Part shown: one piece after another, positions 21,866 to 33,141 of the stretch
Numbering within the stretch: position 1 is the stretch's first letter
Layout: every line of letters begins with the position of its first letter
IMG/VR virus record: IMGVR_UViG_3300025117_000049
Coordinates: 1 to 64,000 of that record
Source of the DNA: a virus
Direction: 5' to 3' (one strand)
Length of the DNA stretch: 64,000 bases
Notes under the pieces: generated by a model
Databases searched by the model: none
Told to the model about the DNA's origin: nothing
What the model saw: the letters and a program-made list of their open reading frames with translations, nothing else
Translations under genes and position numbers: made by a program

Positions 21866-21941
21866 TGGTGCGGGTGGTGGGACTCGAACCCACGGCTTCG
21901 TGCTCCCAGGGCACGCACTCTACCAACTGAGCTACACCCAC
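21866..21941 (-). tRNA. tRNA-Pro(UGG), atypical
   Basis: 76-nt cloverleaf: GTGGGTG/CACCCGC acceptor, GCTC-AGTTGGTA-GAGT D arm, CGTGC-CCTGGGA-GCACG anticodon arm, TTCGAGT T loop, encoded CCA. Confidence 0.9.
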
Positions 21942-28824: not shown

Positions 28825-29352
28825 TTACGACTTATTGATTTCATCCAACAGCAGATTCCCGACCCGGTCAAGCTCTTGCTTGGTATGGGCCACCCCGGAG
28901 TTCAGATCCAGGTACCACTGCAATACTTCAGCCCGGGTAGGCAGGTTAGCTACATGGAAATTGAAGTGTAGGCCATAAACGAATCTCTTGTCTTCGTATT
29001 CGGAAAAAAGATGACCATATGCAGGAATTTCATTGTGAAGGAAGGCCAGTACAGCGGTGATACGCTGCAGGCCGTCAACCAATTCCATGGGACCGCGATA
29101 ATCGTTCATCCAGCCGGGGCAATTGAAGAATATGTCCAGGCCAGACTCACCGCCGCGGATAATGAATTCCACATAGGCAATCTGCTGTTCCTTGGTCCAT
29201 ACATGTCCACGCTGAAAATCAGGGTTAAGATCGAATTTAGTGCCGCTGCTTTTCTCAGAATAACTTTTAAGCTGTTCCTCCAGGTAATCCCAGGAGACGT
29301 GAACATTGTAATGGGTCTTGCTCATTTGCTTGATGTCTTTGAATCTTGCCAT
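28825..29352 (-). CDS. DUF262 (ParB-like) domain protein
   Basis: PDFQRGHVWT and VDGLQR motifs; AAGGAG RBS before the ATG at 29352. Confidence 0.85.
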   Translation of the reverse strand: MARFKDIKQMSKTHYNVHVSWDYLEEQLKSYSEKSSGTKFDLNPDFQRGHVWTKEQQIAYVEFIIRGGESGLDIFFNCPGWMNDYRGPMELVDGLQRITAVLAFLHNEIPAYGHLFSEYEDKRFVYGLHFNFHVANLPTRAEVLQWYLDLNSGVAHTKQELDRVGNLLLDEINKS

Positions 29353-29385: not shown

Positions 29386-29459
29386 CCTGCAACCATGGCT
29401 GCCTATCAGAGCAGCCAGAGGGTTTCGGCCGTAACCCATCCGGCTCTCATTCAGGCAGG
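29386..29459 (-). ncRNA. hammerhead ribozyme (type I, variant core)
   Basis: CCUGC-CUGAAUGA-G(A)GCCG/CGGCC-GAAA-CC..GG-UU-GCAGG. Confidence 0.65.
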
Positions 29460-29798
29460 GATTTCGCTCATGATGGTATTAGCCACTTTTTGCGCTTCAT
29501 CATATCTGAAAAACTGGCGATTGCAGTAGATTTTATCAGTCATGTCTTGAAGGATAGGCGGATTAAGCTGGTAATCAGATTTGCTGTCTTGAATCCTATC
29601 CAGGAACAGCTGATCAGAGTTGCGGTGCTTTCCGAATACCCAAGTCTTTTTGCCAACGGACAGGCAAATGCCCCGCTCTCGGCCATTGTAGAATGGAGAC
29701 CAATGGACCGGACGGCCAGTAGAGAAATGGATTAGTTTGGCAATGGCAAATGCTTGAGGGTGAATGCCAAATGTCTTATCTAATTTATGTTTTTTCAT
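29451..29798 (-). CDS. hypothetical phage protein
   Basis: FYNGRERG...FGKHRNSD; the stop codon lies in the ribozyme core. Confidence 0.7.
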   Translation of the reverse strand: MKKHKLDKTFGIHPQAFAIAKLIHFSTGRPVHWSPFYNGRERGICLSVGKKTWVFGKHRNSDQLFLDRIQDSKSDYQLNPPILQDMTDKIYCNRQFFRYDEAQKVANTIMSEIPA

Positions 29799-29810
29799 AA
29801 TCCTCTCCCT

Positions 29811-30167
29811 TTAATGGATGGCCTTATCCAGGCAGTTGATATTCTGTTCGGTTTCGGCCCGCTCCAATACCTGATTGCACTTGTCGACCGTGGCCTGGAG
29901 CCGGGCTTCCCACATTTCCATGTTCCGGTAGATCGTATCGGTGATGCTGATTGAATTTGATGCTGTCCTCCCACTTCTGACAGCCCCGGCCTTGCCTACG
30001 AAATAGTAGTTGGGGTTGTTCCCGGTCGGAATGAACTGGCGGTATCGGGACTTGGAGGGAATTTCTTGCATTTTGCGAGCCTCCACCAAATAACGAACCA
30101 CCCTATCGGTTAGGGTCTTGGGCTGCCCCTTCTTGGGGCCGGCCTTGAATACCTGGTATTTGTTCAT
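29811..30167 (-). CDS. hypothetical phage protein
   Basis: YYFVGKAGAVRSGR. Confidence 0.65.
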   Translation of the reverse strand: MNKYQVFKAGPKKGQPKTLTDRVVRYLVEARKMQEIPSKSRYRQFIPTGNNPNYYFVGKAGAVRSGRTASNSISITDTIYRNMEMWEARLQATVDKCNQVLERAETEQNINCLDKAIH

Positions 30168-30427
30168 GATTGTTCTCCCCTACCATGGGTATGATTCTTA
30201 CTCTGTTCTGATACCCAGGATTCAAGATGGTCCTTGACAAATTCAAGAACTACTTCGCCAAGCTCGCTCGGAGCCTTGCCAAATACACAATCTGGACAGC
30301 GGCGAGAATTCTCGCAGCGGCGAGTGGCTGGCTGAAAACCTCCGAATCTAGATCCGGTGACCCAACCAGTCCCTCCGCAAACTTCACATTCCTTTTCAAG
30401 AAGGCTCTTGAGTTGTTCGGGCTTCAT
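30164..30427 (-). CDS. small zinc-finger protein
   Basis: CEVCGGTG...CPDC. Confidence 0.65.
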   Translation of the reverse strand: MKPEQLKSLLEKECEVCGGTGWVTGSRFGGFQPATRRCENSRRCPDCVFGKAPSELGEVVLEFVKDHLESWVSEQSKNHTHGRGEQS

Positions 30428-30455
30428 TTTCCTGCTCCTTTGATATTGGATTTTT

Positions 30456-30506
30456 CCTGCGACGGAGCCTGTAATGGCTCCGTTCCGCCCCTTTGCGTCA
30501 GGCAGG
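30456..30506 (-). ncRNA. hammerhead-like RNA (degenerate or minimal stem II)
   Basis: CCUGC-CUGACGC-AAAGGGGC-GGAA-CGGAGCC/GGCUCCG-UC-GCAGG. Confidence 0.45.
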
Positions 30507-30531
30507 TCACCTTGCGGTGGTGGGCTGGGTT

Positions 30532-31221
30532 TTAAAGAATGGCCTTGGCCAACTCGACCACATTGACTTTCTTATCCAGGATTTCCTGCATGGTTGCCTT
30601 GATTTCGGCCTTGGTGCTGAACCAATGACCGACTCTGCCGATTATGCTGAATGACCCTCTAGCATTATCAGCCCAGGCTTCAATCATCCTGGCAGCCATC
30701 AGATTGGAAGTTTAGGAAGTACTACTGGGTATGCTCGATGCCAGGCCGATGGCTTGCTTGGTCATATGCTTTTCCATTTCTGACCAGAACCCTGGGTCAT
30801 CCCAATTCTCCGGCTGGTTAAGCCAACCACGGACAGTCTGGAGGACTTTTGCCTTAGCGGCATCTTTGAAGGCCCCCTCGCCCCAGGAAAGATAATGTTC
30901 GGGACTTTCTTTGACCTTGTCGGCCCATTCGGCAATCCAGTCCATCAGCGACTTGATTTCCTCGTCGATGATATCCAGGGGCATACGTTCTGCCAGGTAG
31001 ATCAAGGTCTGATTGCGGTTGTATTCGGCCTCTTTTTCTAGGAGGCTTTCGGCGATTGCCATGGCACCGGAGTTTTGCTGCTTGTAGGCTTTCACAAATG
31101 GCCTGGCATTTTCTTCGTTTGACAAGGGAACATAGCCGACTTTCTCGGCTAACTTACTGATCTTGTCGGCGGCCTCTTTCTGCGTCTTGCTTTCGGAAAT
31201 GATTTTTTCGATGCTATTCAT
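30532..31221 (-). pseudogene. hypothetical protein with in-frame TAA at 30712-30714
   Basis: The frame continues 59 codons past the stop: SSTS*TSNLMAARMIEAWAD...AKAIL. Confidence 0.55.
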
Positions 31222-31253
31222 CTTCCAGCTCCTTTAAAGGTTTATTTTTGGCT

Positions 31254-31308
31254 CCTGCTAACCCGGTTTCCCGGGCTTTCATCGGTGCCACCCGAATCAT
31301 CAGGCAGG
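31254..31308 (-). ncRNA. hammerhead ribozyme (type I, canonical core)
   Basis: CCUGC-CUGAUGA-UUCGG(GUGGCA)CCGAU-GAAA-GCCCGG(GAAA)CCGGGU-UA-GCAGG; loop-II UGGC can pair with the downstream GCCA. Confidence 0.85.
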
Positions 31309-31545
31309 GGTTAATTCGATGCTAAATCTTGAAAGGTATTCAACAGAAGGATTCTTGCCCCAACATTTTTGGCAGAGATTCTCTTTCTTAACAGGCCCGC
31401 GATAAAGATTGAAATGATTGATTCTCCAGGAGGAATCATTGCAGGCAGCAGAATGGTTTCCAAAACAGCGATGGACTTTACCTCCGAAAGGGGTTAGTCC
31501 GGCAAAATCATGAAGAAAGCAATATTCACCTTGTGGAGTAGCCAT
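31300..31545 (-). CDS. small Cys-containing protein
   Basis: GGAGG RBS; ends PA-stop inside the ribozyme. Confidence 0.6.
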   Translation of the reverse strand: MATPQGEYCFLHDFAGLTPFGGKVHRCFGNHSAACNDSSWRINHFNLYRGPVKKENLCQKCWGKNPSVEYLSRFSIELTPA

Positions 31546-32494: not shown

Positions 32495-32522
32495 ATTATA
32501 AGCCTTTTTATTAAGAAGTCAA
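32495..32522 (-). promoter_or_regulatory. sigma70-type early promoter
   Basis: TTGACT-N16-TATAAT with an AT-rich upstream element, at the head of the minus-strand early operon. Confidence 0.75.
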
Positions 32523-32646: not shown

Positions 32647-33141
32647 TTATCGTTTTCTGCACCCAAAACCAGCTCTATGCATCAGATCGGCACGGACTTC
32701 CTCAGATGGTCCCCATCCCCCACATTTCCGGCACCGCCTCCATCCAACATGCCCACAAGCCCTTAATACCCGTTGCCGCTTTTTAATCAATTCCATGTGC
32801 GGCCGGTCCTGACAGACAACAAGATTCCCATGATCAAGGTTGGTCCGGTTCCCATCCAGGAAGAACACAGACCACCTGGGCGGTTCCAGCAGACAATACC
32901 CCAGGGCCATTTCGGCCACGGCCATCTCAGATGGTATGTAAACGGTGCCAGCCCGGACGGCCCATGGATGACCTGGAGCATAGGTGCGGCCCCTGTTAGA
33001 ACCAGGCTCACCAGCTGTTACACCACCTTTCCAATGGTTGGCCTCGGCCCTGGTCTTTCCCCGCCAGTAATGTCCCCGCCGCCAGTGCGACCCGGTCCTG
33101 ACTGCCTCACCACAGCCGCATTCACAGGTTTTGATGATCAT
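32647..33141 (-). CDS. degenerate HNH endonuclease-like protein
   Basis: CECGCG, NHWKGG, PGHP, VFFLDGNRTN...NL (His residues replaced). Confidence 0.6.
   Translation of the reverse strand: MIIKTCECGCGEAVRTGSHWRRGHYWRGKTRAEANHWKGGVTAGEPGSNRGRTYAPGHPWAVRAGTVYIPSEMAVAEMALGYCLLEPPRWSVFFLDGNRTNLDHGNLVVCQDRPHMELIKKRQRVLRACGHVGWRRCRKCGGWGPSEEVRADLMHRAGFGCRKR

Follow-up and report, generated by a model that had tools for sequence, protein, structure and literature searches.

Three short elements on one strand of an uncultured phage genome resemble hammerhead ribozymes, and two of them carry the stop codon of the preceding gene within the presumed catalytic core, raising the question of whether all three cut the transcript that contains them and whether the embedded stop codons have a part in the cutting. 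The elements (HH1, HH2 and HH3) lie within 1.9 kb on the minus strand of a 64-kb window, the whole stretch of DNA analysed here, which comes from a 96.8-kb IMG/VR virus genome (a phage of ~97 kb). They have 2 and 3 genes between them and are housed in a co-directional array of small minus-strand genes running from ~33.6 kb down to ~22.4 kb (Table 1). A 540-nt gap upstream of the co-directional array contains a promoter-like site, possibly the start of the transcript bearing the three elements, and an 'early operon' label is plausible given this site and the gene order.

The shared parts named in the original prediction, a CCUGC/GCAGG stem I, CUGA, GAA, a stem III and a UH cleavage site, are present in all three elements, which also open with one common 9-mer (CCUGCCUGA) and close with GCAGGA. 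Exact matches to CCTGCCTGA number three in the 64-kb window (~0.5 expected), one per element and each on the minus strand, and blastn of the region against GenBank phages gave no match. The predicted cuts were also correctly placed just ahead of the next gene: the new 5' ends at 31258, 30460 and 29390 would lie 37, 33 and 38 nt from the next ATG, respectively, and AAAGGAG precedes each of the three downstream ATGs. Among the downstream products, the 87-aa Cys-rich protein has a weak anti-TRAP-like zinc-ribbon match under the Pfam cut-off.

Table 1. Positions in the 64-kb window of the three elements, the neighbouring genes and the associated sites
Feature	Position	Strand	Description
Promoter-like site TTGACT-16-TATAAT	32495..32522	-	11/12 consensus match only
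81-aa gene	31300..31545	-	Protein ends ...TPA; last codons CCU GCC UGA (Pro-Ala-stop) are stem I and core of HH1
HH1, predicted type I hammerhead	31254..31308	-	Consensus core, 5-bp stem I, GAAA-capped stem III; predicted cut 31259/31258
GCCA tail	31249..31252	-	Predicted pseudoknot partner of loop II UGGC (31290-31287); one base past stem I
169-aa gene	30712..31221	-	First after HH1 cut; 37-nt leader, SD AAAGGAG
HH2, hammerhead-derived three-way junction	30456..30506	-	Stem I, CUGA, 7-bp stem III and GUC kept
87-aa Cys-rich gene	30164..30427	-	After HH2; 33-nt leader
115-aa gene	29451..29798	-	Protein ends ...IPA; Pro-Ala-UGA inside HH3; phrog_6319, E 4.8e-6, residues 15-110
HH3, hammerhead variant	29386..29459	-	CUGA-A-UGA, bulged stem II, long stem III, U17; predicted cut 29391/29390
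175-aa GmrSD_N/DUF262 (ParB-like) gene	28825..29352	-	After HH3; 38-nt leader; PF03235, E 1.2e-9; phrog_1583

The elements were compared with the hammerhead consensus, in which three helices surround a junction with C3 U4 G5 A6 N7 G8 A9 on one side and G12 A13 A14 on the other, and an A15.1-U16.1 pair is followed by H17 (not G) at the cleavage site. HH1 can be divided into CCUGC / CUGAUGA / U-UCGG-GUGGCA-CCGA-U / GAA / A-GCCCGG-GAAA-CCGGGU-U / A / GCAGG, with CUGAUGA and GAA correctly placed between stems I, II and III, and with A15.1-U16.1 followed by A17 and then G1.1. Its one departure from the consensus is a U10.1-U11.1 mismatch at the base of stem II, falling on the most conserved pair of that stem. 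The same mismatch recurs in a hammerhead of another phage locus (L103) and in two copies of a related phage described below, and it has been reported as a natural active variant and the best tolerated mispair (Perreault et al. 2011, PMC3088659). Stem III has 7 bp beneath its GAAA cap. UGGC in loop II is complementary to the GCCA tail, forming a predicted pseudoknot of only 4 bp that would provide the tertiary contact between stem I and the stem II region; pseudoknot contacts are found in all three hammerhead types and are required for fast cleavage (Perreault 2011, PMC3088659). The hammerhead fold (-23.6 kcal/mol) comes within 0.4 of the minimum free energy (MFE) structure (-24.0 kcal/mol). 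Judged by these features, HH1 is very probably a ribozyme, and we would expect with considerable confidence that it cleaves itself efficiently.

Established hammerhead models, one of the checks proposed for these elements, failed to see any of the copies: Rfam gave no hammerhead match at gathering thresholds in the 64-kb window or at E<=10 in stretches of 2.3 kb and 91 nt, and RF00163 run on the genome gave none either. However, Rfam also missed 5/5 of the control hammerheads given to it from the phage class described below (L055, L047, L012, L106 and L111), canonical cores included, and its silence on the three elements therefore counts for little. Rfam Hammerhead_1 (RF00163, clan CL00010) covers the same ribozyme class and type I topology, but its models fail to detect these phage members, and annotation pipelines will under-report the class because Rfam 15 is blind to a populous group of phage type I pseudoknot hammerheads. 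A purpose-built model was more informative. A pattern scan of IMG/VR that combined the common stem I with a consensus core returned 111 loci, with good stems II and III in 27 distinct sequences; the scan also yielded many chance hits without stems. The covariance model R1, built from 19 hammerheads on other viral contigs, scored HH1 at 40.3 bits (E 2e-7), HH3 at 30.8 bits (E 3.5e-5) and HH2 at 28.3 bits (E 1.4e-4), scores that are partly circular because the training set was picked by a pattern taken from these elements, so that stem I and the core are invariant by construction; the contribution of the spacing and of stems II and III is independent. The next best match to R1 in the window reached 13.8 bits, and across the whole 96.8-kb genome the composite pattern and R1 pointed to these three sites only.

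The absence of an Rfam match and the abundance of stemless pattern hits would be compatible with chance look-alikes, plain repeats or terminators unrelated to hammerheads. Such an origin is barely credible given an exact 9-mer that occurs three times, always on one strand and at a gene junction, R1 E-values from 2e-7 to 1.4e-4, and every consensus core position present in HH1; no U-tract follows the elements, and the explanation is further contradicted by covariation between loop II and the tail and by compensatory changes between HH1 and its counterpart in a related phage, both set out below.

When R1 was run over 100 fetched loci, 54 hits were obtained, 43 of them distinct. Stem I covaries across this class, other versions being CCUAC/GUAGG, CCCGU/ACGGG, CCGUG/CACGG and CCCAA/UUGGG. 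In the alignment of the 43 distinct members 97.7% of cells are paired, compensatory changes occur in 15/17 pairs and the covariation score is 0.624 vs <=0.11 in slid controls, figures that are somewhat flattered by the fitting of the alignment to the model. Past a spacer of 1-2 A, the sequence downstream of stem I is complementary to loop II, and both sides covary (UUGACU/AGUCAA, UAGCU/AGCUA, CGACU/AGUCG, UAGUU/AACUA, CGCU/AGCG, GGUU/AACC and UGGC/GCCA). The best helix between loop II and tail averages 3.54, compared with 2.98 (sd 0.10) when partners are shuffled, and 0/2000 shuffles reach 3.54. Clusters are common, with five members in 2.2 kb at one locus (L054/L068), five in the related phage G001 and three each at two further loci (L098 and L036). 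By comparative sequence analysis, then, this is a widespread class of phage type I hammerheads with a 5-bp stem I and a pseudoknot between loop II and a 3-6-nt tail, and its near-invariant core together with covarying stems and pseudoknot indicates selection on the ribozyme fold itself. As in the pseudoknot-stabilised hammerheads already known (Perreault 2011; Zhan 2024), a base-paired loop II contact replaces the classical loop-loop contact. By contrast with the form whose crystal structure has been solved, in which loop II pairs with an extra helix I stem-loop (Zhan et al. 2024, PMC11300833), loop II here would pair with a single-stranded tail after an open stem I.

The original prediction had counted three hammerheads, and for HH1 this is supported by the full core, the 40.3-bit score, the pseudoknot and compensatory changes in stem III; for the other two copies it is not supported in that form. 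HH3 can be written as CCUGC / CUGA-A-UGA / G(A)GCCG...CGGCC / GAA / A-CC...GG-U / U / GCAGG, which breaks the exact CUGANGA spacing by one base too many after A6. GAA, A15.1-U16.1, U17 and stems I-III are all present, and the weakened pseudoknot (GGUU/AGCC) includes a G-U pair. With pseudoknot and tertiary energies left out, the hammerhead fold is disfavoured, at -25.8 kcal/mol vs -33.9 kcal/mol for an MFE structure that is 8 kcal/mol better and pairs stem I and the core to part of stem III. Scanning IMG/VR for the same stem I with this A6a-type core spacing gave 0/37 unique pattern hits with hammerhead stems, compared with 27 for the canonical spacing with the same stem I. A natural A6a insertion has been reported to have low activity (Perreault 2011, PMC3088659). 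HH3 is probably slow or inactive, and that it cuts at all seems rather doubtful.

HH2 has gone further from the consensus. Its MFE fold is a three-way junction (CCUGC / CUGA / CGC-AAAGGG-GCG / GAA / CGGAGCC-AUUACA-GGCUCCG / UC / GCAGG) in which CUGA is followed by the hairpin CGC-AAAGGG-GCG alone and then by GAAC, so that the C3-A9 and G12-A14 core is incomplete in either of two registers. In the first, N7-G8-A9 and A15.1 are absent; in that of R1, C stands at A9 and G at A13, stem II is deleted as a block and GGAAC replaces GAAAC. Without a GCCA tail there is no partner for a pseudoknot. These lesions, loss of positions 7-9 or of A9 and A13, exceed any variant reported active, and a scan of IMG/VR for HH2-like cores found one chance coding match only, repeated in five contigs. 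We read HH2 as a relic that is predicted to be inactive, with efficient self-cleavage very improbable on the basis of its core. Assignment to a different ribozyme class found no match by cmscan, and a role as a substrate cleaved in trans was rejected since the stem III strand of HH1 is unable to pair with the HH2 substrate strand. HH2 begins 25 nt past the stop of a 55-aa ORF. Its nine 5' bases and its 3' end (GUCGCAGGA) are perfectly retained, beyond the expectation for simple decay.

Two related phages were found by a search with a two-sequence alignment of a conserved 90-aa protein; searches with the single 169-aa or 118-aa protein found no relatives. The first, G001 (locus L030/L118), is a 97.4-kb phage that shows partial synteny with the window and 41-78% identity to its proteins, with five class members in the equivalent region. 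The HH1 module, which runs from AACCCCUGC to AGCCAAAAAU, is identical at 62/71 positions (87%) to the G001 copy HHa, and the differences include two compensatory changes in stem III, namely A-U to U-A at 15.1-16.1 and an adjacent G-U to U-A. The genes on either side of HH1 and HHa are unrelated between the two phages. HH3 is related in sequence to another G001 copy (HHe), and the G001 copies carry the core variants U15.1-A16.1, U4C and a G3/C8 swap. In the second relative, G002 (L119), the accessory block is missing in its entirety and no hammerhead occurs, indicating that the ribozymes move together with small accessory genes that form a variable set.

The near identity of the HH1 module across two phages with unrelated flanking genes, and the absence of the element-bearing block from the third, raise the possibility that catalysis is not the selected function and that the elements are conserved junction modules combining a compact 3'-end structure, a leader and a ribosome-binding site, which may further act as short homology patches for the exchange of gene cassettes between phages. 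That the core-defective copies retain stem I, stem III and the leader, and that core variants are frequent in both phages compared for the HH1 module, would fit this explanation. However, the nearly invariant core of the class and the covariation of its stems and pseudoknot argue against it, and cassette exchange can be judged from no more than two or three genomes. We therefore regard a selected function other than catalysis as unlikely, and a more specific version, in which ribozyme, pseudoknot tail and A-rich leader form portable junctions for swapping accessory-gene cassettes between related phages, as a speculative possibility of similarly low probability. Were it true, copies that have lost catalysis (HH2 and perhaps HH3) would be kept for the junction structure or the leader, not for the cut.

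The stop codons within the cores of HH1 and HH3 were found as predicted: the UGA of the core ends the upstream ORF in both copies, and both proteins end in Pro-Ala. Both genes are, by homology, real, the 81-aa gene because it has a 43%-identical homologue in G001 and the 115-aa gene because of its phrog_6319 match. The G001 homologue of the 81-aa protein ends ~2 residues shorter and has no ribozyme after it, indicating that the Pro-Ala-stop was supplied by the ribozyme and is not ancestral in the protein. In G001, HHa instead follows an in-frame UAA located two bases ahead of stem I, and the same module therefore ends the upstream gene differently in the two phages.

This variability extends to the class. 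Of the distinct members, 35/43 have an ORF (>=40 aa) that ends near the ribozyme on its upstream side, and in 27/43 the upstream stop lies within -6 to +12 nt of the first base of the ribozyme, mostly at -2, -1, 0 or +9. The core UGA serves as the stop in 8/43, and most of the others end 0-2 nt before stem I. On the downstream side, distances from cut to start cluster around 30-40 nt. The idea that the design requires the stop codon was rejected, the overlap being facultative in the class and HHa following a UAA. The overlap of stop and core is probably a by-product of a ribozyme packed flush against the preceding gene, and flush packing is the rule of the class.

We also considered whether all three copies are active and whether a mechanism links their cutting to translation ending at the embedded UGA, a coupling that had been proposed as a possibility. 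Two of the three copies do have a stop codon in the core, the class lies flush with stops far more often than expected for random placement, and some variant cores in prophage contexts are active (Perreault 2011, PMC3088659). Against this, HH2 lacks either G8 and A9 or A9 and A13 and has no pseudoknot, and HH3 has the A6a insertion, for which no pattern hit had stems, and a strongly competing fold. Moreover, the embedded stop is facultative, most class offsets falling at -2 to 0, and because the cut site of a type I hammerhead lies 3' of both the stop codon and the entire ribozyme, the upstream fragment keeps both regardless of whether translation has finished. Coupling to translation termination is unsupported by these results, and the full proposal of three active copies with coupled cutting is highly improbable. 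Taken together, the three elements are best read as copies of one phage hammerhead class, with HH1 intact, HH3 damaged, HH2 a relic and the stop overlap a by-product, a reading to which we assign a probability of roughly 0.72.

Under the preferred reading of one intact and two degraded copies, HH1 would fold once the 3' strand of stem I and the tail have been transcribed, and would cut the nascent polycistronic RNA after A31259. From known hammerhead chemistry, the upstream 81-aa message would then have the folded ribozyme and a 2',3'-cyclic phosphate at its 3' end, and the downstream message would start with a 5'-OH at GCAGGAGCCA and have a 37-nt A-rich leader with its ribosome-binding site. 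HH3 would be a damaged sister copy, cutting slowly if at all given its A6a insertion, weak pseudoknot and strong competing fold, and HH2 would have retained the three-way junction with the catalytic core gone. An effect of the HH1 cut on the stability or translation of the transcript is plausible.

Hammerhead clusters flanking single prophage genes have been described, and cutting long phage transcripts into gene-length mRNAs is the role proposed for them (Perreault et al. 2011, PMC3088659); processing of this phage transcript into such units would follow that published reading and is not new. In vitro cleavage has been shown for three tandem arrangements from prophage regions of bacteria, and for one of the three in E. 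coli as well (Perreault 2011, PMC3088659). The clusters in Agrobacterium tumefaciens (the ardA triple), Azorhizobium caulinodans and Clostridium scindens resemble the present one in having several copies per ~2 kb on one strand, varying small accessory genes between copies and a pseudoknot tertiary contact. They differ in that the published triples all cleaved, whereas here only one of the three cores matches the consensus. With such an arrangement on record since 2011, the present case is an ordinary new example, one more phage in a well-documented pattern with no concept changed.

Two features of the locus reach beyond this single genome. The flush placement of stops across the class is a measurable regularity, with compaction of the genome, protection of the 3' end and interplay with the ribosome as candidate causes. 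In addition, this phage and its relative G001 combine an intact copy with the variants A6a, U4C, G3/C8 swap, U15.1-A16.1 and U10.1-U11.1, providing a natural panel of core tolerance. Part of this panel parallels the natural core variants already catalogued (U10.1-U11.1, A6a insertion, U15.1-A16.1 and U3-A8 in Fig. 5 of Perreault 2011, PMC3088659): U10.1-U11.1 occurs in HH1, the insertion after A6 in HH3 and U15.1-A16.1 in G001 copies.

In a related 97.4-kb phage (G001), one hammerhead carries the C3-G8 core pair as G3-C8; its stems are intact and its pseudoknot comprises 5 bp (UGGCU/AGCCA). Covariation to U3-A8 at this pair is natural according to Perreault 2011 (PMC3088659), and no mention of a natural G3-C8 pair was found in the portions of that source consulted. 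Two further core variants occur in the same phage and, when the copies in the window and those in G001 are combined, 5 different departures from the consensus are seen.

The class to which these elements belong, phage type I hammerheads with a 5-bp stem I and a pseudoknotted loop II, falls outside public Rfam models. With Rfam 15 at E<=1, no hammerhead was called at the canonical type I pseudoknot hammerheads of five IMG/VR phage contig loci (L055, L047, L012, L106 and L111). In L054, five class members are clustered in an arrangement that is identical in L068, and stem I covaries among these copies (CCUAC/GUAGG, CCUAC/GUGGG and CCUGC/GCAGG).

Features of the class and its surroundings
Feature	Location	Strand	Detail
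G001 hammerhead with swapped core pair	L030:10616-10675 = L118:2126-2197	(-) in L030, (+) in L118	CCUAA GUGACCA GGCCGG...
G001 core variants (n=2 further)	L030:6266-6323 and L030:9851-9907	both (-)	U4C (CCGAUGA); U15.1-A16.1 replacing A-U
Class hammerheads (n=5)	L054:649-2892	(+)	within 2.2 kb
Small hairpin	window 30507-30531	(-)	CACC-ACCGCAA-GGUG; directly 5' of HH2
Cys-rich ORF, 164 aa	window 32647-33141	(-)	HNH_3 endonuclease match, weak, below cut-off
tRNA gene (n=1)	window 21869-21941	(-)	Rfam, 64.7 bits

Other ribozyme-like matches lie about 320 nt 3' of class hammerheads in two loci, both just below the Rfam cut-off: an HDV-F-prausnitzii-like match in L005 (1013-1085, +; 31.7 bits, cut-off 44) and a type II hammerhead match in L103 (12168-12228, +; 35.7 bits, cut-off 37).

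In the window, the small hairpin lies between the stop codon of a 55-aa ORF and stem I of HH2, the element read as a hammerhead relic without a catalytic core, and has a terminator-like score on the plus strand. The Cys-rich ORF is located just upstream of the promoter-like gap preceding the minus-strand small-gene array, and the tRNA gene lies at the distal end of that array, which also carries the hammerheads.
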